The notes under the pieces were generated by a model. The model made no database searches, had not been told where the DNA came from, and saw only the letters and a list, made by a program, of their open reading frames with translations. 34,380 nucleotides of DNA, from NCBI GenBank assembly GCA_044347055.1, contig JBIIXZ010000003.1, forward strand, positions 1-34,380, written 5' to 3'. This DNA comes from Bdellovibrionia bacterium (GTDB lineage Bacteria > Bdellovibrionota > UBA1018). Below, piece by piece: positions 11,721 through 26,544 of this stretch. Every line of letters starts with the position of its first letter. Position 1 is the stretch's first letter. Both the position numbers and the translations under genes were made by a program.

Positions 11721-13127
11721 TCACTCCTCGGAGTCGTCGCTTCGACGAAGCCCCAGCTCCTTCATTTTGAGCTGCAGTCCCTTGCGCGAGAGTCCGAGCG
11801 ACTCGGCAGTGCGAGTCACGTTTCCGGAATTTCGGCTCAGCTCCTCTTCGATCAGCCTGCGCTCGAGCTCCTGCGTCTGAAGCCGCACCTTCTCCTTGAA
11901 GCTCAGCTCTGGCACGTCGGCAGCGGGCAGGCCCGTCGCCTTGCCGATTTCCTCGGGAAGGTCCGCGACCGTGAGCGACGCGCCTTCGCACATCACCACC
12001 ATGCGCTCGATGACGTTCTCGAGCTGGCGAATATTGCCAGGCCAGCTGTAGCGCCGCAGCACCATCAGCAGCTCGGCGTCGATCGCAGTGACGATTCGGT
12101 TCACCCGGATGCAGGCCTGCTTGAGGAAATATCGCGCCAGCGGCTCCAAATCATCGATTCGATCACGAAGCGCGGGAAGATGGATCGGAACGACGTTCAA
12201 TCGATAAAAAAGATCCTCCCGGAATTTTCCAGCCCGGATTTCCTCCTCGAGGTTCCGATGCGTTGCAGCCACGACGCGGAAATCGGCATGGAACGATCGA
12301 ACGCCGCCGAGTCGCTCGAAGGTCTTCTCCTGGAGAACGCGAAGCAGCTTGGCCTGCATGTCGACGGGAATCTCGGCGATTTCGTCGAGAAACAGCGTTC
12401 CCTGATGGGCAAGCTCAAACCGACCGGGCTTGGAAGTCACCGCGCCGGTGAAAGCTCCGCGCTCATGTCCGAAAAGCTCGCTTTCCATCAGGTGGATCGG
12501 AATCGCGGCACAGTTGAGCTTGATGAAGGGCCCCGAGCTTCGGTCGGATTGCAGGTGGATCCTGCGGGCCACGAGCTCCTTTCCGGTGCCGCTTTCTCCG
12601 GTCAGCAGCACGGTGGAGTCTCCCGCAGCCACCTTGCTGACGAGACGAAGCACCTCCTGCATCGCTTCGCTCGAACCAACGAGAGCACCGAGTGATTCCG
12701 TGCCCGCGGACGAGGCGGCGCCCGCCCGGCGCTCGGAAATTCGGGGCTCGCGAGACTGCTCGCGTGAAGAGGCCACGGCTTTGCGAATCGACGCCAGCAG
12801 CTCCTCCTGGTCGAAGGGCTTGGTGACGAAATCGGCAGCCCCCCGCCGAAGCGCTGCCACCGCCGAATCCACGGTTCCATACGCGGTCAGCAGGATCACC
12901 GGAACTTCCGGGCGAAACTTTCGACAGAAGTCGAGGATCGCCAGGCCATCCATGCCCGGCATCGCGAGGTCGGTGACCACGGCATCGAGAGCATCGCTCT
13001 CGAGCGACTCGAGCGCCTTTTCCGGATCATTGAAAGCCAGCACCTCGAAACCCGCGCGAGAGAGGATTTCCTTCAGCACCAGGGTCAGGTTCTTTTCATC
13101 GTCAACGACCAGCACACGTCCGTTCAT
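11721..13127 (-). CDS. Sigma-54-dependent response regulator (NtrC/AtoC family: REC-AAA+-HTH)
   Basis: VLVVDDE, TDLAMPGMDG, GESGTGKE, ESELFGHERGAFTGA, LFLDEI, FREDLFYRLNV, WPGNIRQLEN, Fis-type HTH. Confidence 0.96.
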   Translation of the reverse strand: MNGRVLVVDDEKNLTLVLKEILSRAGFEVLAFNDPEKALESLESDALDAVVTDLAMPGMDGLAILDFCRKFRPEVPVILLTAYGTVDSAVAALRRGAADFVTKPFDQEELLASIRKAVASSREQSREPRISERRAGAASSAGTESLGALVGSSEAMQEVLRLVSKVAAGDSTVLLTGESGTGKELVARRIHLQSDRSSGPFIKLNCAAIPIHLMESELFGHERGAFTGAVTSKPGRFELAHQGTLFLDEIAEIPVDMQAKLLRVLQEKTFERLGGVRSFHADFRVVAATHRNLEEEIRAGKFREDLFYRLNVVPIHLPALRDRIDDLEPLARYFLKQACIRVNRIVTAIDAELLMVLRRYSWPGNIRQLENVIERMVVMCEGASLTVADLPEEIGKATGLPAADVPELSFKEKVRLQTQELERRLIEEELSRNSGNVTRTAESLGLSRKGLQLKMKELGLRRSDDSEE

Positions 13128-15130
13128 TCAGAACCTCCGAGCGGAAGACGAATCCGAAAGCATGCGCCGCGACCGCGAACTTCAACGGCCTCGATCCTTC
13201 CACCATGGCTCTCCACGATGCGCTGGCTGATCGAAAGCCCCAGGCCGGTTCCGGCTGGATTCGTCGTAAAGAAGGGAACAAAAAGCTTTGAAAAATCGGC
13301 AGGCGCAATGCCCCTGCCATTGTCGCGGATCTCGAGAATCACTGCCTGCGAATCCGCCGATGTTCCTGAGGAAATCTCGATCTCGGTGGCGCCCGCCTGG
13401 ATGCTGTTATGGACCAGGTTTTCGAGGACTCGGTAAATCGCTTCCGGATCCATCTCCGCCGCCAGCGGTGTTCCTGAATCCGACCATTCACGGACCATCA
13501 CAGGCGTGCCGGGATGCGAGAGTGAACAACCGGAGCGCAGTCGCTCGATCGAGCGTTTCATCCACGGGCCGATCTCGACGCATCCTGACTCCACCGGAGA
13601 CTTCCTGGAGTAGACCAGAAACTGGCTCACGACATGATTGAGGCGCCCCACCTCTTCGCGAATGATGCGGGTCCACGGACCGAGCTCGGAAGTTTCCGGA
13701 AGCAGCTGGGCCGCGCCCTGGATCGCCCCGAGCGGGTTTCGAATCTCGTGCGCCAGTCCTGCCGCCATCTCGCCGAGCGTCGCCAGTCGCTCGCGCTCGG
13801 CTTCATCATGGATTCGAAGCAGGAGCGCCAGATTTCTTCCCGCTTCTCCCAGGTACTCCTCCACTTCGCGAAGCTGCCGCCAGGTGCGAAGTCCCTTCGG
13901 CGCAGCTCCTGGTCCTTCCATTTCGAGCCGGACCAGCACCCAGCCCAGAATCCGGCGATCGAAGACCGGAAGGACTGCATTGAAATCGCCCCTGCGGAGC
14001 TCGGCTCGCACTGCCTCGAGGCGTGCATTGAGCTTTTGATCCGATGATCGACTGATTTCTGCCTGCAGAAGTGAATCCACCAGGATCGTCAGGCGCCCTT
14101 GCTCGCGCCGTGACTGGATCTCGTCCAGGAGCAGCGAGGAACGCTCGGCAATGTCGCGATGGATGAGCACGAGCTTCATTGCCGAGCAGGACAACGCCCC
14201 TTCCAGTCCCGCAGCCAAGGCGTTCTGCCATTCCGAAATGCCTGATGCGGTCCGGACCTCGAGCATCGCGCGCTCCAGGCGAGTCCTCCATTCCGCATCG
14301 CGAGAGGCCAGCACTCGGTCCGTCAGCGCAGAAATCCAGCGCTGAAGCGGATTGATGAGGTTCACGATGAGAAAGGACGCGGCGAAGGAGTTCAGGAAGA
14401 AAAGAACGGGATTGTGCTCGATCCAGGACACGAGCGTCAGATAGAGGCCCGTGAGCAGCAACGCGAGAACGAGGAGCACCGCAAATCGCGTCACGAGAAG
14501 AGGAACATCGACGAGCTTCTGCTGACGAATCGCCTGCCCCAAGAGGATCAGGTAGATGCACAAAAGAAGATTGCCGAGCGACGGGACGACATGGCCCAGC
14601 CACGGCACATGATCGAGGGTCGAGAGCGAAAGCACCGCGAGGGCGCCACCGAACACCACTCCCTCGCGAAGCGGCAATGGCCGGCGGGTGGCCAGGATCA
14701 CCAGAAGCTGCAGCACCACCGGCGCAGGAGAAAAGAACATCAGGTCGCGCAGGAACGATGGAGCGATGCCTCCTTGGGGCCAGAACCCGAGCCAGGCAAC
14801 CGACAGCCCCACGGACGACAGCCAGCTGAGGGTCCATACGGCCTGCGACAATCGCCCGGTCCAGCCCGAGGGCGCCCGTCCGATCCACACTCGGATGAAG
14901 TACAGGCAGGCCGGGCCCAGCCAAATTCCTGACAGCAGATGGAAGTAGTAAAACCAGCCCCCTCCAAAGACCTTTTCGAGGAAAAACAGCAACGACCAGG
15001 CAAAGACCACCGAGCAGGCGGCGGAAAAGCTCAGCATCAGCTTGTTCTGAAGCTGCCGAGGAAGGACGGAGAGTCCCATTCCGAGGCTCGTCAGGGCCAC
15101 GAGGAGGGCCGTCTGGGCAAGCAGGTTCAT
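13124..15130 (-). CDS. Multi-TM sensor histidine kinase, partner of 11721-13127
   Basis: Long hydrophobic N-terminal region; H-box AHEIRNPL; intact N-box ENLVHNSIQA, G1 DNGRGI, F-box FVPFFTT, G2 GTGLGL; ATGA overlap with the regulator; start re-called at ATG 15130. Confidence 0.93.
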   Translation of the reverse strand: MNLLAQTALLVALTSLGMGLSVLPRQLQNKLMLSFSAACSVVFAWSLLFFLEKVFGGGWFYYFHLLSGIWLGPACLYFIRVWIGRAPSGWTGRLSQAVWTLSWLSSVGLSVAWLGFWPQGGIAPSFLRDLMFFSPAPVVLQLLVILATRRPLPLREGVVFGGALAVLSLSTLDHVPWLGHVVPSLGNLLLCIYLILLGQAIRQQKLVDVPLLVTRFAVLLVLALLLTGLYLTLVSWIEHNPVLFFLNSFAASFLIVNLINPLQRWISALTDRVLASRDAEWRTRLERAMLEVRTASGISEWQNALAAGLEGALSCSAMKLVLIHRDIAERSSLLLDEIQSRREQGRLTILVDSLLQAEISRSSDQKLNARLEAVRAELRRGDFNAVLPVFDRRILGWVLVRLEMEGPGAAPKGLRTWRQLREVEEYLGEAGRNLALLLRIHDEAERERLATLGEMAAGLAHEIRNPLGAIQGAAQLLPETSELGPWTRIIREEVGRLNHVVSQFLVYSRKSPVESGCVEIGPWMKRSIERLRSGCSLSHPGTPVMVREWSDSGTPLAAEMDPEAIYRVLENLVHNSIQAGATEIEISSGTSADSQAVILEIRDNGRGIAPADFSKLFVPFFTTNPAGTGLGLSISQRIVESHGGRIEAVEVRGRGACFRIRLPLGGSE

Positions 15131-15195
15131 GCCCCACCCTTGTACCAGACAATGCGGCTCAAGGTGAGCCGGGATGAGGTCGATAGGGACACTGT

Positions 15196-15669
15196 ATGGC
15201 AAACCGCCTCAACCCTATTGAACTGGTCATCTTTGCAGTGGTCGCCACCGGATTCGGACTTTCGGCCTATCGCCTCCTTCAGGAGCAGCCCGGAACGGGC
15301 TCCGCCATGCTGGCGCCGATGGCGTCGAACCCGGTCTCGGAGCAATCGGATCGTAGCCCAGCATCCATTTCGCCGCTCTTTGGACATGTCGACTTCGGCT
15401 GCAAGGCCGGACAGGAGACCACCGTCAAGGCCTCCAAGATCCGGATCTCGGGTCCGATCTGCGGCATCGAGCCCGGTGCCGCGATTGTCTCATCGAACAT
15501 CACCAACTCGGCCAACCAGTTTCATGCGACCGTGTTCACGGACATGAGCACCGGGAAGTTCTCGACCGATTACATCCCCTTGAATTCAGACAAGAACTCG
15601 ATTCGCGTCGAATTCAAGTTCGCCAACGGCAAGATCGTCTCGCACGACCTGACGCTCCAGAAGCAGTGA
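15196..15669 (+). CDS. Hypothetical protein, single N-terminal TM plus Ig-like beta domain
   Basis: One hydrophobic segment, linker with DRSPAS, two Cys, beta-rich C-terminus; divergent from the kinase. Confidence 0.8.
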   Translation: MANRLNPIELVIFAVVATGFGLSAYRLLQEQPGTGSAMLAPMASNPVSEQSDRSPASISPLFGHVDFGCKAGQETTVKASKIRISGPICGIEPGAAIVSSNITNSANQFHATVFTDMSTGKFSTDYIPLNSDKNSIRVEFKFANGKIVSHDLTLQKQ

Positions 15670-18840: not shown

Positions 18841-19653
18841 GTGTCGTTTCATCGCCCCTTGAATCGCGTGCTGTCATCTGCCCTGCTGGCCCTATCCGCT
18901 GTCGCCTGCTCGATGGAGCCGCGAGGCTACACGCGGGCAACACCGGATCCGGAATTCGTGCCCGCAGATTCCTGGAGCTCGATGACGCTGGTCATCTCGG
19001 GCGCACGGACGGTGGTCTCCAGCAACGGTCACTTCACGACGGTGCCGAATGCCTGCTACCGACGAGAGAGCGGTGCCCTCGACCTGGAGCTCTGGAACCG
19101 TGTCGCCCAGGCCGTCAACAGGATGCTGGAGCAGAACTGGCTCGACGAGCCCTCCTGCGCTCCACGGCCGGCCGGGGCGGCTGACCTCTATCAACCCGTG
19201 ATTCTCGCCATGCGTGACCGACAGACACGCGAGCTGCTCACTTCCAGCGGTGGAAAATTCTGCTCACGCTCCGCCGACCTCACCGCTGCAGCCGATCTGC
19301 TCGTCGCCCTTTCCGAGGTCGCGTACAAGGCCAAGCATGAGGGCTGTCCCGCGCGCGGGTCCTTTTGGGACGAGTCCGGCCTCTTCCTCGACGGACCCAG
19401 CGATTATGAAAACGCCTCGGATCGAGAGGATCGCCCTGACCGTGACCATCGGGATGACGACGATCGCGAAGAGCACGAAGACGGCCGCCCCGACCATTGG
19501 CCTCGTCCGCACCCGCGCCCCACGGTTCATCCGACTCCCCACCCCACGCCGCGTCCGACTCCGACGCATGAGCCCAAGAAGGAACATGACCGTGGCCACC
19601 ATCGGCCCGATCAGAAGGGCAAGCAGGAAGGTTCAGAGTGGTGGAACGACTAA
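18841..19653 (+). CDS. Lipoprotein with a His/Asp/Pro-rich low-complexity C-terminal tail
   Basis: SD AAGGAG before GTG 18841; lipobox-like AVAC; tail DRDHRDDDDREEHED...PHPRPTVHPTPHPTPRPTPTHE. Confidence 0.8.
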   Translation: MSFHRPLNRVLSSALLALSAVACSMEPRGYTRATPDPEFVPADSWSSMTLVISGARTVVSSNGHFTTVPNACYRRESGALDLELWNRVAQAVNRMLEQNWLDEPSCAPRPAGAADLYQPVILAMRDRQTRELLTSSGGKFCSRSADLTAAADLLVALSEVAYKAKHEGCPARGSFWDESGLFLDGPSDYENASDREDRPDRDHRDDDDREEHEDGRPDHWPRPHPRPTVHPTPHPTPRPTPTHEPKKEHDRGHHRPDQKGKQEGSEWWND

Positions 19654-20384
19654 TTCGGATCGCGTGAGAGTTCTTCGAGGGCTGCCAGCATCCTCGATCG
19701 GCTCTCGTCGGCCAGTCGGCCGACATCAGCCGTAGTCAGGCCAGTCGTGGAAATGGGCTCCAGCACTCGAACCCGGATGACTCCGGGAGTGAGCCGCCGC
19801 TCGCGATAGTCGAGCACCTTGCGAACGGGCGAAGCCACCAGGGGTACGAGTGGAAGGCCGGCCTCGATGGCCATGTGGAAGGCGCCCTTCTTGAACGGAA
19901 GCAGCCCCTTTCCCGACTTGTTCCTCGTGCCCTCCGGAAAGATCATCACGCTGACGCCCTTCTCGCGAATCTTCCGCCCGGCATCGCTGATCCCTTCCAC
20001 CGCCCGGCGGTGCCGCTTGCGATCGATGAAGATGTTTCCAGCAGCAAAGTAGAACAGGTTGAAAAAAGGAATCCAAGCCAGCTCACGCTTTCCGATCACG
20101 ATCGTCCGTCGCGGAAAGATCGAGCCGAAAATGTGCACGTCGAAGTTGTCCTGATGGTTGCCCAGATAGATGCACGGCTGGAGGCTCTCGAGCGACGAGG
20201 CTCCCTCCATTTCGATTCGGACTCGCGTGATCCTGCGAAGGCCCCAGGTGCCAAACCGGGCGAGCGCTCGATTGAAATCCAGGTTTCCGAACATCACCGG
20301 AATCAGCAGCACCCCCACCACGGACATCAGAAGAAGCCACGCGAGCGACAGGATGTAGCGAAGCAGAAAATCCACGGTGCGCAT
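19650..20384 (-). CDS. plsC: 1-acyl-sn-glycerol-3-phosphate acyltransferase
   Basis: NHQDNFD (HX4D), FIDR, IFPEGTRN, LLPFKKGAFHMA. Confidence 0.93.
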   Translation of the reverse strand: MRTVDFLLRYILSLAWLLLMSVVGVLLIPVMFGNLDFNRALARFGTWGLRRITRVRIEMEGASSLESLQPCIYLGNHQDNFDVHIFGSIFPRRTIVIGKRELAWIPFFNLFYFAAGNIFIDRKRHRRAVEGISDAGRKIREKGVSVMIFPEGTRNKSGKGLLPFKKGAFHMAIEAGLPLVPLVASPVRKVLDYRERRLTPGVIRVRVLEPISTTGLTTADVGRLADESRSRMLAALEELSRDPN

Positions 20385-20422: not shown

Positions 20423-21391
20423 CTACTGAAACCGGGCCCGTAGCCAGTCGGAGTCCAGATCGACGTTGAGGCTGCGGACCGACGAAGAGGCGCCCGGCTC
20501 GACCCAGGTCACGAAATCCGGATGGTCGCGCACGCTTCTCCCGCTCCATTTTGCTCCGTGGACCTCGTAACCGTCCGGAACAGGATGGGCCTCCAGTACA
20601 TACTGGTATTCCAGCACGGGAGCGAGGCGCTCCGTCGAATCGCGATCATCGTCATACGGAAAGACGGCGTACACCCACGCACGGACATGGAATACATCAG
20701 CTCGCTCCGGATCGCGGCGAATGGTCCAGCGGGCTCCATCGACCGGCGTGTTCCAGACCGGAGGACGTGGATCTCGATCCATGATGAACGGCACTCGCCG
20801 ATCCTGAAGCATCACCTGCAGGACGCGGTGGAACTCGGCGGGCGAGATGTCCTCGAATGAGCTTCCGCCGTTTCCGTCGTTTCGCTCCCCGACCGTTCCT
20901 CGGATCGACGGGTCGACCACTTCATGCGCATAAATCCAGAGAGCCTTCTGTTCCGCGACAGAAAAAACTTCGCGGCGCCCCTCCACCTCGACCACTTTCG
21001 GGACCAGGGGTTCGGGCTGCAGGATCGAGGCAATCGCCCAGGCATCACAACGCCCTTCCCAGGGCAGGAACGGCCGTGCCTCGCTCCGGATCCTCTGCTC
21101 TTCGCGCGCAAGCGCCTCTTTTCCCGAGAGTCGATCGTATTTTTCCAGCGCCGAACGTGCATCGATTCGAGAGAGCGGATGCCAGTATCCCGACCACGGC
21201 CTGATGGAGGCCTGGCCCGAGAACTCACCTTCGTGGATGACGGCCGGGCCATGGCTCATGCTGAAGGAGCCGAGGTCGCGCGGATAGGTTCGGAGGGTTG
21301 TGGAGGGAGGAGCCCCGCACGAGGACAGGCAAGCCGTCATGATGACGAGAATTGTCCACCTCGCTGCGAGGCTCCTGCCAGGGAAGTCCAT
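20423..21391 (-). CDS. Lipoprotein of the transglutaminase-elicitor (GP42-like) family
   Basis: Lipobox LSSC; family-like motifs PWSGYW, LEKYD, WEGRCDAWAIASI.QPEP, SPAEFH, VWNTPV, YQYVLE, G.W....HPDF.W. Confidence 0.75.
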   Translation of the reverse strand: MDFPGRSLAARWTILVIMTACLSSCGAPPSTTLRTYPRDLGSFSMSHGPAVIHEGEFSGQASIRPWSGYWHPLSRIDARSALEKYDRLSGKEALAREEQRIRSEARPFLPWEGRCDAWAIASILQPEPLVPKVVEVEGRREVFSVAEQKALWIYAHEVVDPSIRGTVGERNDGNGGSSFEDISPAEFHRVLQVMLQDRRVPFIMDRDPRPPVWNTPVDGARWTIRRDPERADVFHVRAWVYAVFPYDDDRDSTERLAPVLEYQYVLEAHPVPDGYEVHGAKWSGRSVRDHPDFVTWVEPGASSSVRSLNVDLDSDWLRARFQ

Positions 21392-21398
21392 CTTCAGG

Positions 21399-21989
21399 TC
21401 ACTTCTGAATGATGGAGAGCTGGGCGCAGGTGTCGATGACCCGGCCGGTGGCGGCCACCTGGACTGCGGACTCGTTCTTGTCCTTCGACTCGTCGATGGC
21501 GTTCTGGCAAAGATCCTCGGCCTCGACCTTGTCGTGAAGGACCTGTTCGCAGGTCACCGGCACTTCCACGGCATACTGTTCGATCACTTCCTGGAAGCGC
21601 TGGCACGAGCCGGCCGCCTGGATGACGTCGACGTTCTTCGACACTTCTGCGACGCGGAACTTGTCCGAGATCACGGTCGTGGAAACCGTGCGGACGGACT
21701 TCAGCGGAATCTCGCCCGGTGCTGCGGCAAGCCAGGTGACTTCATGGTTCCGGCACACGAGCTTGATGTCCTGCGGAGCGCGCTGGATCTCGCTCTTGCT
21801 CGGATCGGCACACTGCTGCTTGAACTTTTCGAGGCTGACCGTCAGAACCGATGGTGCCTGCGGAGCGGCGCCACCCGCCGGAGCCGGCTCGGGACGAGGT
21901 CCCTCTCCCGCGACCGCCAGCAGCGAGCTGAGCGCAACCGCCGCAAACACCGAAACTGCCCAGTACCCATCATTCGAGATCTTCTTCAT
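21399..21989 (-). CDS. Hypothetical secreted protein with six Cys
   Basis: MKK start with SD-like GAGGGG; signal-like hydrophobic stretch; six Cys in the mature region; 7 nt before the transglutaminase-like gene. Confidence 0.8.
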   Translation of the reverse strand: MKKISNDGYWAVSVFAAVALSSLLAVAGEGPRPEPAPAGGAAPQAPSVLTVSLEKFKQQCADPSKSEIQRAPQDIKLVCRNHEVTWLAAAPGEIPLKSVRTVSTTVISDKFRVAEVSKNVDVIQAAGSCQRFQEVIEQYAVEVPVTCEQVLHDKVEAEDLCQNAIDESKDKNESAVQVAATGRVIDTCAQLSIIQK

Positions 21990-22042: not shown

Positions 22043-22058
22043 TGCAACGCAGGTGCCA
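22043..22058 (-). promoter_or_regulatory. Sigma-54 (-24/-12) promoter for 21989-20423
   Basis: Minus strand reads TGGCAC-CTGCG-TTGCA, an exact match to TGGCAC-N5-TTGCW, in the 77-nt gap after the activator gene. Confidence 0.85.
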
Positions 22059-22066
22059 GCAAGCGG

Positions 22067-23488
22067 CTATTCGAGGCCGTACCTTCGACGCTTGCGCCAC
22101 AGCGTGCTCAAGTTGATGCCCAGAATGCTCGCCGCCTCCTCGAGAGTTTCAGACGAATTCAGGACGCTCTCGATATGCCGACGCTCGAGCTCCTCGAGAC
22201 TGACCTCCGCTGCCGAAAGATCGGCCTGGGTGCCGATCGATGCCAGAGGTGTTGCAGAAAGCGACGGAATCGCGCCGGAGATCGGCGAACTCATGCGATC
22301 TGCAGTCTTTTCTGCGGTCTTTTCCACGATGCGATCCGGCAGGTCATCGAGCGTCACCTGATCGGTCGAGCAGAGGATCGCTGCGCGCTCGAGGGCATTC
22401 TTGAGCTCGCGGATATTTCCTGGCCAGGGGTAGCTGTTGATCGCGCGGCTCGCCTCCTCGCTCAGCGGGCGCGCCGGACGATTCGCGGCGGCGAAGGCCC
22501 GTTGAAGAAGCCCTTCGGCAAGCGCCGGGATATCCTCGGGACGCTGCCTCAGGGAAGGCATGTGCAGATCGATGACGTTGAGCCGAAAGTACAGGTCCTC
22601 ACGGAACCGGCCTTCCTGGACTTCGCGCTCCAGGTCCTTGTTGGTGGCGGCAATGATCCGCACATCGACCCGAATGGTCTTCGTATCGCCGACGCGCTCG
22701 AACTCGCGCTCCTGGAGGAATCGCAGCAGCTTGGTCTGGAGCGCAGGCGAAATCTCGCCGATCTCATCCAGAAAAACAGTTCCGCTGTCTGCAAGTTGAA
22801 GTCGTCCGGCCTTGTCCTTGACGGCTCCGGTGAAGGATCCCCGGACATGCCCGAAAAGTTCCGACTCCAGCAGGTTTTCGGAAAGGGTCGCGCAGTTGAC
22901 CACTGCAAAAGGTCCCTTGGCGCGCTGGCTGGCGTCGTGAGTCGTCTTCGCAAGCAGCGTCTTTCCGGTGCCGCTCTCACCGGTGATCAGGATCGTGGAA
23001 TCCGTGGCTGCAACCTTCCGGGCCATGTCCAGCACCTTCTGCATTCGCGGATTGCGGGTCGTGATGGTGGAAGGCTCGGAAAGAACTTCAACAGTATCGC
23101 GCAGCCGGGCGTTCTCCGCGCGAAGCTTTCGAAACTCCTCGATTCTCTCCACCAGATGCTCGAGCTGCTCCGGAGTAAAGGGCTTGACGAGATAGTCGTA
23201 GGCCCCGCCCTTCATGGCGCTGATTGCCGTGTCGATGGTGCCGTATGCCGTCATGATGACCGGAGTCACGCCCGGAAAATACTCGCGCGCCTTGCCGAGC
23301 AGGTCGAGGCCGCTCATTCCATCCATTCTGAGGTCCGTGATCAGGATGTCAGGGCTCATGCGTCGCATCAGCGACAGGGCCATCTCACCACTGTCAGCAA
23401 CCTGGACCTCGTGGCCGGCCGCTGTCAGCGCCGCCTCCATCGTATTGCAGATCCCCTGTTCATCATCCACCACCAACAACTTCGCCAT
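22067..23488 (-). CDS. Sigma-54-dependent response regulator, AlgB-like
   Basis: LLVVDDE, ITDLRMDGMSG (phospho-Asp kept), GESGTGKT, ESELFGHVRGSFTGA, VFLDEIGE, FREDLYFRLNV; HTH LEEAASILGINLSTLWRKRRRYGL recalls AlgB; start re-called at ATG 23488. Confidence 0.93.
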   Translation of the reverse strand: MAKLLVVDDEQGICNTMEAALTAAGHEVQVADSGEMALSLMRRMSPDILITDLRMDGMSGLDLLGKAREYFPGVTPVIMTAYGTIDTAISAMKGGAYDYLVKPFTPEQLEHLVERIEEFRKLRAENARLRDTVEVLSEPSTITTRNPRMQKVLDMARKVAATDSTILITGESGTGKTLLAKTTHDASQRAKGPFAVVNCATLSENLLESELFGHVRGSFTGAVKDKAGRLQLADSGTVFLDEIGEISPALQTKLLRFLQEREFERVGDTKTIRVDVRIIAATNKDLEREVQEGRFREDLYFRLNVIDLHMPSLRQRPEDIPALAEGLLQRAFAAANRPARPLSEEASRAINSYPWPGNIRELKNALERAAILCSTDQVTLDDLPDRIVEKTAEKTADRMSSPISGAIPSLSATPLASIGTQADLSAAEVSLEELERRHIESVLNSSETLEEAASILGINLSTLWRKRRRYGLE

Positions 23489-25280
23489 TTCTGCCTCCCC
23501 TCTCTTCAAAAATACCTGCACGCCCCTGAGGCAACGTCAGGATGAATTCAGCCCCATCTCGATAGTCGGAATTCAGCGCCAGGGTGCCTCCATGCCCCAT
23601 GGCGATCTCGCGCGCGATCGCAAGGCTCATGCCCGTCGAGTTCGAACGTGCAACACGGAGATCGTAATGCGCAAAATTGCGTTGAAAGATGCGCTCTGTG
23701 AGGCCTGCCATTGCCGGCGATCCCACGCTTCGCACCACGATCCTCAGCGCATGGTTCGAGTCGATCATGGCCTCGGACATCCGCACCTCGATGCGCGAGT
23801 TTCGAGGCGAATGCCGCAGCAGGTAGGTGATCAGCTGCATCAGGCTCCACGAAATTCGCGGTGCGTCGGCTCGGGCCATGACCTCCAGCTCGCTGCAACG
23901 AAAGGCCAGGTCCATCGAAACGCCTCGGGCCTCCGCTTCGGCTCGCGTCGACCTCACGGACTGCGAGAGCAGTCGCCGCAGATCCACGACCCGGAAATTG
24001 AGTTTCTCGGCATCCAGCTCGAACCGGCTGGCTGCAAACAGCTCGTCGATCAGCTCGCGCAGACGCTCGACATCCCGTACGCTGGAGTCGACCAGCTTCT
24101 TCTGGACGGCATTGAGCGAGGAAGAAGAGCGCTGCAGGAGCCGCGTTGCCATGAGCAGGCTCGTCACAGGAGTCTTGACCTCGTGCGACAAGAGCCCGAT
24201 GAAATGAGTCTTGGCGTCTTCTGCCTGCCGAATCCAACTCACATCCTGGCCGACGACCACGGAGTCGAAATCCAGCTGTTCTCCCCAGTGGCGCCAGTCG
24301 GCATTGTTCTGGGTGAAGAGAAAGGCCTGGATCTCTCCCGGATCCTCCTTGTCCTGCACCCGCCACTCCACGGGAGTATCCTTTTTTCGGGCTCCGAGAA
24401 TGGCCCGCACCAGAGACTCCTGACGTGAACTGGAGCACAGGGCGAGATCCACGGGCAGCGTCGCGCTCCGCGAAGCAAGACCGAGAAGCTCCGCCCCGAG
24501 CCGATTGCACCAGACCACCCGAGTATCTCTGAGAAAATAGACGGCATCGCGAGAGGCAGACGCCAGAACCTCGGCGCGAGCCTTCTGCTCGACGAGGCGA
24601 TGAATATTGATGCTCCGAAAGTCGCGAACCCGGCTCACGAGGGCTTCGGTGCCGCGAAAGAGCTCCTGGACCTCCACGGCAGCATCGTCCACGCCGGAGC
24701 GCCGCCTCGCCTCCGAATCAACAAAAAGAGGAGTCACTTCTCGAGAGAGATCCATCGCCCTGAAGTACTGAGTCAGATATCGAACCGGACGTACTCCGTA
24801 GAGGTACATCTTGCGCCCGATCACCATGAAGAGCAGCGAGAACACCAGCCACGTCGTCCCTGCTTTCAGGAGCAACGACCGGAAGAGGGATTTCAGGTCA
24901 TCCACGAGCCTGTAGACTTCGTTGAGCTGGTACACGTGCCAGGCATCCGCAAGCGACCGGAGCGAGTTGCGGTCTCCTGCGGGAGAATCGAGCTCACGAA
25001 GGATTTCGGAGATGAATGCCAGGCTCGCCTGATCAGGCTCCGCCGAATCTCGCACGTTCTGAAGCGTGGGCGCCACCCTCTCCCATTCCCCGAGCTCAAT
25101 GAACGCTCCCACCTGGCCAGCCGCATTCGCGAGAGTATGACGGCGGATCTGCTCCTGGATGTACTTCTGGTTTGCCCGAAAGCCCTCCAGGCCGACGACC
25201 AGGAAGGAAGCGCCCGACAAACCGATGACCACGATTAGAATGATCACCAGCTTCGAAAAAAGCGAGTTGCTCGACAACAT
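23463..25280 (-). CDS. KinB-like membrane sensor with intact H-box but degenerate HATPase domain (probable pseudokinase)
   Basis: Two TM segments, HAMP/PAS-like linker, H-box LSHEVKTPVT; N-box reads MQLITYLLRHSP, G1 reads VRSVGSPA, G2 reads STGMSLAI. Confidence 0.85.
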   Translation of the reverse strand: MLSSNSLFSKLVIILIVVIGLSGASFLVVGLEGFRANQKYIQEQIRRHTLANAAGQVGAFIELGEWERVAPTLQNVRDSAEPDQASLAFISEILRELDSPAGDRNSLRSLADAWHVYQLNEVYRLVDDLKSLFRSLLLKAGTTWLVFSLLFMVIGRKMYLYGVRPVRYLTQYFRAMDLSREVTPLFVDSEARRRSGVDDAAVEVQELFRGTEALVSRVRDFRSINIHRLVEQKARAEVLASASRDAVYFLRDTRVVWCNRLGAELLGLASRSATLPVDLALCSSSRQESLVRAILGARKKDTPVEWRVQDKEDPGEIQAFLFTQNNADWRHWGEQLDFDSVVVGQDVSWIRQAEDAKTHFIGLLSHEVKTPVTSLLMATRLLQRSSSSLNAVQKKLVDSSVRDVERLRELIDELFAASRFELDAEKLNFRVVDLRRLLSQSVRSTRAEAEARGVSMDLAFRCSELEVMARADAPRISWSLMQLITYLLRHSPRNSRIEVRMSEAMIDSNHALRIVVRSVGSPAMAGLTERIFQRNFAHYDLRVARSNSTGMSLAIAREIAMGHGGTLALNSDYRDGAEFILTLPQGRAGIFEERGGRNGEVVGGG

Positions 25281-25987
25281 CAGGCACGCCTCTGCGGAGC
25301 AAGAATCCGCTCCGCACGGACGGACCAGATCGATGACGATCCGAGCTTCCGGACCTCACGAAGGAGGCCACTTCGTCCGAACAAATAGTACAAGGCTTTT
25401 GCGGCGATGAACGAAGCTTCCACATCGTGCTGATGGTCCCGTCGGAGCTGAAGCACCTGACGACAAAGGCTCATCGCCCGAAGAAAGTCGACGAGGCCCC
25501 GCTCGGCATTACCGGCGCTGAGCCATCCCTGCGCCCGGGCAATATGCCACCTGGCCAGGTGGAGCATCCGTCCAGACCCTCCCGAATCAGTGCGCGCGGA
25601 GGGAATGTCGAGACGAATATCCACGAGCGTTCGGCGCCAGCCCTCCCAGACACCACGGTGCGAAGCGCGTGCGCCGTGCTGAATCTCGATGAACCGGGAC
25701 AGCTCGCCTTCGATCTGCGGAATGGCTGCCCCTGCGAAAAACATCTGGAGAAGCATGAGCTGAGGCGTCTCCGATCCATGCTTGAGCGGCAGCAGGGACG
25801 GAAGGCGCCCCTTGTCCAACTCAGCCCGGATCTCCTGAATCTCGGATTCGAAAACCCGAACCATCGAGTCCGATCGCTTCGACTTCCACAGCTGGTTTGC
25901 CAGCACGGATGCCAGCAGAAAAACTGGAACAAAAGTCAGGATCCCCCAAACAGTGGGAGACCGGGTGAGTTTGCGGAGTCGAATCAT
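25280..25987 (-). CDS. Hypothetical membrane-anchored helical (TPR-like) protein, first gene of the sensor/activator operon
   Basis: One N-terminal TM segment; helical C-terminus; TGATG stop/start overlap with the sensor. Confidence 0.7.
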   Translation of the reverse strand: MIRLRKLTRSPTVWGILTFVPVFLLASVLANQLWKSKRSDSMVRVFESEIQEIRAELDKGRLPSLLPLKHGSETPQLMLLQMFFAGAAIPQIEGELSRFIEIQHGARASHRGVWEGWRRTLVDIRLDIPSARTDSGGSGRMLHLARWHIARAQGWLSAGNAERGLVDFLRAMSLCRQVLQLRRDHQHDVEASFIAAKALYYLFGRSGLLREVRKLGSSSIWSVRAERILAPQRRA

Positions 25988-26169: not shown

Positions 26170-26544
26170 TCACCCGGCAGAACGCATCCGCGAGGCTTCA
26201 CGTTCACGGATCGACTGGCAACGCGTGCAGAGACGTGCCTCGGGAACGGCGAGGAGCCGCTTTTCGGGAATCTCCTCGTCGCAGTCTTCGCAGATGCCGT
26301 AGTTCAGGGTGGCGATCTTGGCGATCGCTCGATCGATGGCCTGAAGCTCTCGAAGCTCCTGCTCCTGCATCGAGGAATTTCTCCCCAGCTGTTCGAGGCT
26401 CTGGGCAATGTCAACCATCTCGGCCTGCGAGTCGACGCGATCCAACTCGCTCTGCTCCAGGTCGATTCGATTCAGTCCCTGGCCCAGCCGACTCCGTCGG
26501 GCCATCAGGGTCTCTCGGATTTTCTGCAAAGTGCTACGGTCCAT
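26170..26544 (-). CDS. TraR/DksA-family C4 zinc-finger protein
   Basis: Coiled coil with EMVDIA tip, AIAKI...YGICEDC..EIPEKRL.AVPEARLCTRCQ. Confidence 0.92.
   Translation of the reverse strand: MDRSTLQKIRETLMARRSRLGQGLNRIDLEQSELDRVDSQAEMVDIAQSLEQLGRNSSMQEQELRELQAIDRAIAKIATLNYGICEDCDEEIPEKRLLAVPEARLCTRCQSIREREASRMRSAG

Follow-up and report, generated by a model that had tools for sequence, protein, structure and literature searches.

Introduction

Pseudo-histidine kinases and phosphatase-dominant sensors are both accepted categories of two-component protein, and the described systems closest to the one treated here are found among them. We analyzed a 34,380-nucleotide stretch of DNA from a Bdellovibrionia bacterium (hereafter the window; positions 1 to 34,380 of the forward strand of contig JBIIXZ010000003.1, assembly GCA_044347055.1), in which a gene at 23463-25280 on the minus strand encodes P0001, a sensor histidine-kinase-like protein that has lost its ATP-binding motifs and kept its phospho-acceptor histidine. 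In architecture P0001 resembles KinB of P. aeruginosa, a membrane HisKA sensor with two transmembrane segments, a PAS domain, the H-box sequence H-E-x-x-T-P and a co-transcribed sigma-54 regulator of the NtrC family (PMC6932827). In vivo, KinB serves as phosphatase of that NtrC-type regulator, AlgB, whose kinase is BphP, and KinB phosphatase activity requires the H-box Pro (PMC6932827). However, KinB has an active catalytic, ATP-binding domain (CA domain) and autophosphorylates in vitro (PMC6932827), whereas P0001 is without the ATP motifs. Dephosphorylation of the partner regulator is also the physiological output of Deinococcus radiodurans BphP and P. aeruginosa CopS (PMC12471899), which differ from P0001 in their sensor domains and partners.

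Other comparisons concern the loss of kinase activity itself. The N347D substitution in EnvZ, which removes the N-box Asn, is said to kill the kinase and leave the phosphatase, and work attributed to Dutta and Inouye in 1996 reportedly describes reverse phosphotransfer to the His; that, however, was a single engineered substitution, whereas P0001 has lost N-box, G1 and G2 naturally and the loss has been maintained across a clade. ChpT and Spo0B combine a His in the dimerization and histidine phosphotransfer (DHp) domain with a CA-like domain that is without ATP-binding residues. They are small, soluble, without a sensor domain and fed by a receiver, whereas P0001 is a 605-amino-acid sensor in the membrane whose ancestor was a cognate kinase and for which the analysis identified no upstream donor. 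DivL of Caulobacter, PsmA of Streptomyces and RcsD share with P0001 a histidine kinase fold without kinase activity and their retention as signaling proteins, but they are without the phospho-acceptor His, while P0001 keeps His366 and E-x-x-T alike and stands beside an intact cognate regulator. PsmA has lost E-x-x-T as well as the His (PMC12963549), and a preprint survey reports the His missing in 0.9% of HisKA domains (10.1101/2025.06.23.661182). In Corynebacterium glutamicum, loss of the CA domain turned ChrS into a pseudokinase (ChrS_CA-fs) whose regulator is phosphorylated by a paralogous kinase (PMC9491836); this was a laboratory-evolved frameshift that raised output, whereas P0001 has a conserved, intact CA domain and no evident paralogous kinase. 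The literature searched, which took in few subscription journals, contained no membrane sensor of natural origin in which His and phosphatase motif are retained, the N-box, G1 and G2 motifs are lost and an intact regulator shares the operon.

Sensor architecture and loss of the ATP-binding motifs

The sensor gene, its two signaling domains and the three altered motifs lie as follows.

23463-25280 (-), sensor histidine-kinase-like gene P0001, an open reading frame (ORF) of 605 amino acids
24018-24212 (-), HisKA/DHp domain, residues 357-421 (Pfam 47 bits, cut-off 26.9)
23526-23861 (-), CA domain of HATPase_c fold, residues 474-585 (Pfam 40.2 bits, cut-off 26.4)
23811-23855 (-), N-box helix, residues 476-490, ISWSLMQLITYLLRH (placed by alignment with HK853 and relatives)
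23715-23747 (-), G1 region, residues 512-522, LRIVVRSVGSP (placed by alignment with HK853 and relatives)
23613-23672 (-), ATP-lid and G2 region, residues 537-556, AHYDLRVARSNSTGMSLAIA (placed by alignment of relatives)

In a hydropathy scan P0001 has two hydrophobic segments, residues 1-34 and 135-155, which enclose a helical extracytoplasmic domain of about 100 amino acids. An AlphaFold2 (AF2) model of residues 32-134 is an all-helical bundle with a predicted local distance difference test score (pLDDT) of 93, for which a comparison with the PDB gave no match at E <= 0.001. C-terminal to the second segment follow a linker, a weak PAS-like region (about residues 236-345, a sub-threshold Pfam match), the DHp domain and the degenerate CA domain. 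The AF2 model of the last two, residues 339-605, made from a 32-row alignment, shows a normal helical hairpin and alpha/beta sandwich (pLDDT 83.5), with lid residues 538-546 as the sole part below a pLDDT of 50; Foldseek searches with this model returned HK853, ZraS, CpxA, GacS, DivL, RetS and CusS at E 1e-16 to 1e-13. Similarly, phmmer against the PDB aligned residues 341-590 with Thermotoga HK853 (4jas/2c2a/3dge; E 4e-18 to 1e-17) and set His366, whose codon lies at 24183-24185, over the phospho-acceptor His of HK853. DivL (4q20) was among the sequence matches as well as the fold matches. Membership of the KinB family was considered and rejected, as the KinB_sensor Pfam domain was found neither in P0001 (E <= 0.1) nor in nine relatives (E <= 1) and the sensor domain had no structural match; the link to KinB consists of the architecture, the JGI label "NtrC-family ... 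KinB" on the canonical relative P0011 and an Atlas cluster name at rank 9.

The motif loss lies in the 3' two-fifths of the ORF. In the HK853 alignment the N-box of HK853, LLNLLNNGVKYS, stands over LMQLITYLLRHS in P0001, with EDNGIG over RSVGSP at G1 and GTGLGL over STGMSL at G2; both N-box Asn, the G1 Asp with its GxG and two G2 Gly are thus replaced. Gln482 takes the place of the first Asn and Tyr486 that of the Mg-binding Asn, where canonical relatives read SNLLTNALRH. At G1, now S-V-G-S-P, the Asp has become Ser518 and the GxG is lost, and G2 reads S-T-G-M-S-L, with GMSL where the canonical GxGL stands. We take these positions to be the Mg-binding Asn of the N-box, the adenine-binding Asp of G1 and the lid glycines of G2. 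GHKL ATPases are not known to dispense with the Mg-binding Asn or the adenine-binding Asp and, because these two required residues are gone, P0001 is almost certainly unable to use ATP in the canonical way. The CA domain has retained its fold and lost its ATP-binding motifs. In the genome its HATPase_c match (44.1 bits) ranks 19th of 21, the best 16 of which score 70-112.

The H-box, LSHEVKTPV, is intact. It reads H366-E367-V-K-T370-P371 (H-E-x-x-T-P), and the sequence therefore holds the HisKA-phosphatase motif E/D-x-x-T/N directly after the His, together with the following Pro. The other kinase of the window (13124-15202) has a HATPase_c score of 89.2 bits and carries all of the motifs (ENLVHNSIQ, RDNGRGI and GTGLGLSI). 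A first-pass annotation made from the sequence alone had described this state, and the alignment with HK853 bears it out: N-box, G1 and G2 are replaced in the 23463-25280 sensor, the His and E-x-x-T are kept, the scaffold strings then listed (ADAPRI, ERIF, LAIAREI..HGG and F.LTLP) are all present in an open frame, and the second kinase is canonical.

Conservation and selection among orthologues

Relatives were sought among 5.8 billion proteins with a word-indexed search. It gave a closer set of nine, P0002-P0010, at 39-80% identity, and a more remote set, P0011-P0014, at 28-35%; 41 related genomes, when searched, contributed loci L001-L020. Motifs were tabulated in 26 rows of a DHp-CA alignment, leaving out L012 and L018, which lie at contig ends, L016, for which the H-box pattern gave no ORF, and four P entries identical to loci. 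Both N-box Asn and the G1 Asp are lost in all 10 orthologues, which are 39-80% identical and come from separate assemblies, and the second Gly of G2 is lost in nine of them; H, E, T and P of the H-box are kept in every one. The 11 canonical relatives have SNLLTNALRH, (R/K)D(S/T)GPG and G-x-G-L. The motif loss is not due to chance, given that the catalytic positions affected coincide in 10 of 10 orthologues and are kept in the canonical relatives. HATPase_c scores differ accordingly, at 35-53 bits for clade members vs. 81-102 for canonical members of the family.

The sensor gene is under purifying selection. For L001 and L002, the one usable pair, the NG86 method gave a dN/dS (omega) of 0.139 for the whole kinase gene, 0.049 for the DHp domain (dN 0.071) and 0.157 for the CA domain (dN 0.066). 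Judged by dN, the protein sequence of the CA domain therefore changes no faster than that of the DHp domain.

These data bear on whether P0001 is a decaying gene or an assembly error, a suspicion that its source invites, since the genome is a fragmented metagenome-assembled one of 320 contigs and 77% completeness. Yet the frame is open, the same state recurs in 10 orthologues from separate assemblies, dN/dS is 0.14, and DHp identity within the clade (0.71) exceeds that among canonical relatives (0.64); the shared state together with purifying selection excludes error or decay for practical purposes. The alignment of orthologues had been named beforehand as the test of the first-pass proposal that this is a maintained pseudokinase and neither an error nor a recent decay, and with normal motifs in none of the 10 clade members that proposal has held.

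It is also conceivable that P0001 still works as a kinase and binds its nucleotide by non-canonical means. In favor of this, it retains the CA fold, the F-box (RIF), a G3-like HGG and some of G2 (T-G-M), and purifying selection extends to the CA domain. Nevertheless, the Mg-binding Asn and the adenine-binding Asp, which as far as is known are universal in GHKL proteins, are both gone, and the HATPase_c scores of the clade fall well short of the canonical range (35-53 vs. 81-102 bits). What has replaced these residues varies among the 10 orthologues, with Y, F, Q, H or E for the Mg-binding Asn and S, A, G or N for the G1 Asp, and G1 is the least conserved region of the CA domain in the clade, with a mean pairwise identity of 0.26 vs. 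0.46 in canonical relatives. Such varied replacements, with G1 as the most relaxed part of the domain, leave no conserved substitute chemistry, and we regard a working kinase as very doubtful. The lid/G2 helix, on the other hand, has an identity of 0.71 in the clade vs. 0.65 in canonical relatives. This is the pattern that would be expected if nucleotide binding had been abandoned while the domain kept another role.

Within the lid, the segment Y-D-(L/I)-R-(V/I)-(A/G)-R-(S/T), YDLRVARS in P0001, forms a family signature that ATP-dead and canonical members have alike. Histidine kinases normally vary in this region, so that such conservation is unusual, and the signature may contact the regulator or the DHp domain. 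A conserved C-terminal tail was rejected as a motif of the kinase; it is conserved because the last eight kinase codons overlap the start of the regulator gene in another frame.

History of the loss within the family

A careful maximum-likelihood tree of 26 rows and a quick tree of 25 rows and 206 columns, from which the motif columns had been removed, both place the 10 degenerate rows in one clade (support 100/100 and 100), on a long stem of 1.0 and 0.87 changes per column, respectively. Its sister (support 97-100) consists of four rows from the same genus, of which L014 and L015 are canonical and L017 and P0013 partly degenerate, having His for the second Asn, no GxG and a G2 of G-S-S. The row L019 belongs to another genus, shows full degeneration (S..Y, K-K-S-G-P-E and P-K-V-G-L) and lies outside this 14-row clade (support 98). 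Beyond the clade, then, the family contains full losses in L019/P0171, of the other genus, and partial ones in L017/P0013/P0156. On the tree built without the motif columns a minimum of three state changes is needed. Repeated loss is the most parsimonious reading of these sequences, although it is not established.

Wider sampling gave a similar picture. Among 1.84 billion cluster representatives, searched exhaustively with phmmer, 63 proteins matched at E <= 1e-30; 57 rows were aligned, and seven long or short rows were skipped. Twelve show full loss (the 10 of the clade, P0171 and P0169), two partial loss and 43 canonical motifs; retention of the H-box in these 57 rows is by construction, because rows were chosen by having one. 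The 22 closest loci from species-representative genomes include 20 with a readable CA domain: L035, L036 and L054 are degenerate, 16 are canonical and L055 is ambiguous; L056, among the 22, is truncated. The genomes of these loci are labeled Bacteriovorax, Bacteriovoracaceae, Oligoflexia, Bdellovibrionia or Bdellovibrionota. Most of the family, including the same-genus sister orthologues L014 and L015, keeps canonical motifs. The further losses in the same family therefore make kinase activity look dispensable in this system.

Partner regulator and sigma-54 promoter

The genes and the promoter around the sensor gene, all on the minus strand, are as follows.

22067-23488 (-), NtrC-family response regulator with REC, sigma-54 AAA+ and HTH_8 domains (Pfam)
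22043-22058 (-), exact sigma-54 promoter consensus, TGGCACCTGCGTTGCA, 8 nucleotides past the regulator stop
21399-21989 (-), conserved secreted protein of 196 amino acids without a family match, first gene behind the sigma-54 promoter
20423-21391 (-), TGase_elicitor-like protein (Pfam 44 bits) with a lipoprotein-like N-terminus as judged by eye, next gene of the putative target operon
19650-20384 (-), PlsC-type acyltransferase, downstream of the sigma-54 promoter
25280-25987 (-), uncharacterized protein of 235 amino acids with an N-terminal hydrophobic segment, from an ORF whose stop overlaps the kinase start
26170-26544 (-), DksA/TraR-type zinc-finger protein, a conserved upstream neighbor of the module

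The start of the regulator gene overlaps the stop of the kinase gene by 26 nucleotides. Its receiver is intact by eye (DD, D52, T80 and K102), in agreement with the first-pass statement that the partner keeps its Asp, and the Walker A and B motifs and the GSFTGA loop are present. Omega is 0-0.03 over REC and AAA+ (L001 vs. L002), and the receiver hardly differs between degenerate and canonical genomes, with all active-site residues kept. An NtrC-type regulator beginning M-A-(K/R)-L-L-V-V-D-D-E stands directly 3' of the kinase in 17 of 19 loci, the other two being at contig ends. The conserved order is dksA, an uncharacterized gene, kinase and NtrC-type regulator, and the orthology of the sensors is supported because this order is conserved. 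NCBIfam gave no equivalog at cut-off for the kinase, the regulator or three uncharacterized neighbors.

The sigma-54 consensus TGGCAC-N5-TTGCW has a single zero-mismatch site in the window, the one at 22043-22058 (-). Allowing up to two mismatches gave 19 matches where 13 are expected, and only the exact site is therefore meaningful. Of 13 loci, 11, both degenerate and canonical ones, carry a site with no more than one mismatch just 3' of the regulator, and in the remaining two (G012 and G016) none was found; the gene for a secreted protein 3' of the regulator recurs with the promoter in 11 of 13 loci, and rpoN is present in the genome. From its position we suppose that the regulator would drive this promoter. 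The 196-amino-acid secreted protein gene is likely its direct target, and promoter and gene likely form a family-wide, uncharacterized regulon.

The state of the regulator also bears on the idea that P0001 is a scaffold or sequestering partner that acts independently of phosphorylation, with the sensor domain modulating binding. Known pseudo-histidine kinases are proposed to act in this way, as in the cases of DivL (PMC4211667) and PsmA (PMC12963549), and the lid/G2 helix of P0001 is conserved beyond what nucleotide binding needs. DivL and PsmA, however, are without the His, and PsmA also without E-x-x-T, whereas here H, E, T and P are invariant. Moreover, the phospho-acceptor pocket of the regulator is under very strong constraint, from which it follows that phosphoryl chemistry still matters in the pair. 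We therefore consider a pure scaffold distinctly improbable.

Proposed function of the sensor

The reading that we favor, with a probability of roughly 0.55, is that P0001 is a maintained, ATP-dead sensor whose chief activity would be that of a signal-gated phosphatase toward its own regulator, with the latter charged by another kinase. The CA domain keeps its GHKL fold but would no longer bind Mg-ATP, while the phospho-acceptor His, the H-E-x-x-T-P motif and the DHp surface that would dock the co-transcribed NtrC-type regulator are all kept. A non-cognate kinase would phosphorylate the regulator, and P0001 would strip the phosphate off again under control of its signal, switching the regulator off rather than on. 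The DHp surface, H-E-x-x-T-P and the scaffold formed by CA domain and lid could together hold the regulator in the geometry needed for dephosphorylation, and this dephosphorylation would set the output of the sigma-54 promoter just downstream. P0001 would then be the natural equivalent of a kinase-minus, phosphatase-plus mutant. The sequences themselves establish that the motifs are lost throughout a clade, that selection is purifying, that the partner is intact and that operon and promoter are conserved; that ATP is no longer bound, that the sensor is a phosphatase, that phosphate comes from outside and that the regulator acts on this promoter are inferences.

Several points weigh against this proposal. 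First, ATP binding, autophosphorylation and phosphatase activity are all read from motifs, and the strict retention of the His would fit a role in phosphotransfer equally well, all the more as the His is not strictly needed for HisKA phosphatase activity (10.1101/2025.06.23.661182). Second, the selection estimate comes from one pair of loci (L001 and L002). Between these, dS amounts to 1.1-1.5 over the 5' two-thirds of the kinase gene but drops to 0.2-0.45 in the CA region and is 0.4-0.7 in the regulator; the uncertainty of omega is inflated because the dS of the CA domain (0.42) lies far below the values upstream of it (1.1-1.4). Recombination, codon bias and nucleotide-level constraint are possible causes of the fall. 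Third, no alternative kinase for the regulator was identified in the 77%-complete genome, nor was a close paralogue, the next best kinase being 29% identical over the core. Absences in this genome (ackA, hybrid kinases and Hpt) are themselves provisional because of its completeness. Finally, approximately unbiased (AU) tests did not reject trees in which the degenerate groups are joined (p 0.21 and 0.146) and, because no joined tree is rejected, independent loss leans mainly on genus assignment and conserved synteny.

The retained His is the starting point of a further explanation, in which P0001 would be a histidine phosphotransferase or phosphate sink, with His366 phosphorylated by something other than its own CA domain and the phosphate relayed or drained under control of the sensor. 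Candidate donors to His366 would be the regulator itself, by reverse transfer; a receiver belonging to another protein, as for ChpT and Spo0B; or, within a heterodimer, the CA domain of a different kinase. His366 is invariant in all 10 clade members and kept in the other degenerate lineages, a DHp domain with a CA-like domain that is without ATP motifs is the ChpT/Spo0B layout, and reverse phosphotransfer to EnvZ-N347D has reportedly been the subject of a published study. The dispensability of the His for HisKA phosphatase activity, mentioned above, points the same way, and the genome holds at least six receiver-sized, single-domain frames and a second HisKA-only protein, on contig C97. Against this, the 77%-complete genome showed no hybrid kinase, its sole Hpt lies in a CheA-like gene, and there is no close paralogue for heterodimerization. 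In addition, the transmembrane sensor of P0001 is complete, and P0001 descends from ordinary kinases that were cognate to the same regulator. The Pfam HPTransfase model had no match in P0001 and reached E 0.11 in one relative (P0014). On balance a phosphotransferase seems to us unlikely, and a phosphatase remains our preferred reading.

If the history and the mechanism are combined, the sensor family may have lost ATP binding on two or three separate occasions. The kinase half would be dispensable family-wide, with regulator, promoter and targets fixed, the sensor serving as a phosphatase or a reverse-transfer sink, and the charge coming from a non-cognate kinase; this wider scenario we put forward tentatively, as somewhat less probable than its opposite. 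If repeated loss is true, the family would offer a natural series in which a bifunctional sensor becomes a dedicated "off" enzyme step by step.

A domain match by itself usually suffices for a two-component sensor to be annotated as a kinase, which in the case of P0001 would be a mis-annotation. The main value of the locus is that a single genus supplies ATP-dead orthologues and canonical ones as natural counterparts, matched in that partner regulator and promoter are identical. Such pairs open the questions of what roles a CA domain may have beyond ATP, how a sigma-54 regulator might be controlled by a phosphatase alone and how it is charged when its kinase is dead. The putative regulon of secreted 196-amino-acid and transglutaminase-elicitor-like proteins, shared across the family, is in addition an uncharacterized one in Bacteriovoracaceae-like predators.

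Candidate phosphate donors and neighboring genes

The first-pass annotation had named acetyl phosphate, beside another kinase, as a source of phosphate. This source is disfavored, as acetate kinase was found in none of six genus genomes (77-97% complete), with three of 26 family genomes positive, and the sole PTA_PTB domain of the genome forms the C-terminus of an 832-amino-acid malic enzyme, and no true Pta was found in the genus; the negative is limited by the incompleteness of the genomes and by the existence of other small donors. A BphP-like donor, as for KinB and AlgB, was rejected with the PHY domain in none of five clade genomes. The genome has 18 HisKA matches, 27 receiver matches and one Hpt. 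A relay through a hybrid kinase and Hpt was set aside, there being no kinase and receiver in one frame and the single Hpt belonging to a CheA-like gene. A stand-alone CA domain acting in trans was likewise discarded, as the 136-amino-acid HATPase_c frame on contig C165 is a kinase cut by the contig end.

One orphan kinase was followed further. It is a cytoplasmic PAS-GAF kinase at G000:C92:35202-37223 (+), equivalent to L034:1703-3724; its motifs are canonical, and the 47-kb contig carries no receiver. Orthologues are full-length in G003 and G002, partial in G005, represented by the core only in G001 and absent from G004, G006 and G007; full-length copies thus occur only in genomes with a degenerate sensor and in none of three sister-group genomes. 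This distribution follows relatedness and amounts to no more than one event, and in its core the kinase shows no particular closeness to P0001. The kinase was accordingly rejected as the replacement donor and is kept as a lead only.

The HisKA-only protein on contig C97, at G000:C97:14756-16108 (+) (L033:1757-3109), is soluble and 451 amino acids long, with a low-complexity, Thr/Lys-rich N-terminus. Its HisKA match scores 40 bits, its H-box reads LLSHELRTPLMS, and HATPase_c is not detectable in it.

Two further observations concern neighbors of the sensor gene. Homologues of the 235-amino-acid protein (25280-25987), with a shared C-terminal S-(I/V)-W-(S/A)-x-x-A, occur upstream of the kinase in L002, L003, L006, L009 and L018, and it is possible that this is an accessory protein of the sensor. 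About 8 kb from P0001, at 11721-15202 (-), lies a canonical pair of a kinase and an NtrC-type regulator, AtoS/ZraS-like by NCBIfam at scores below the cut-offs. The first-pass annotation had put its kinase (there 13124-15130) forward as a possible cross-phosphorylating partner, for or against which the present comparisons do not speak. The H-box helix of this neighboring kinase (13124-15202), LAHEIRNPLGAIQGAAQLL, differs from that of P0001, LSHEVKTPVTSLLMATRLL, and its regulator is 41% identical to the partner regulator of P0001.

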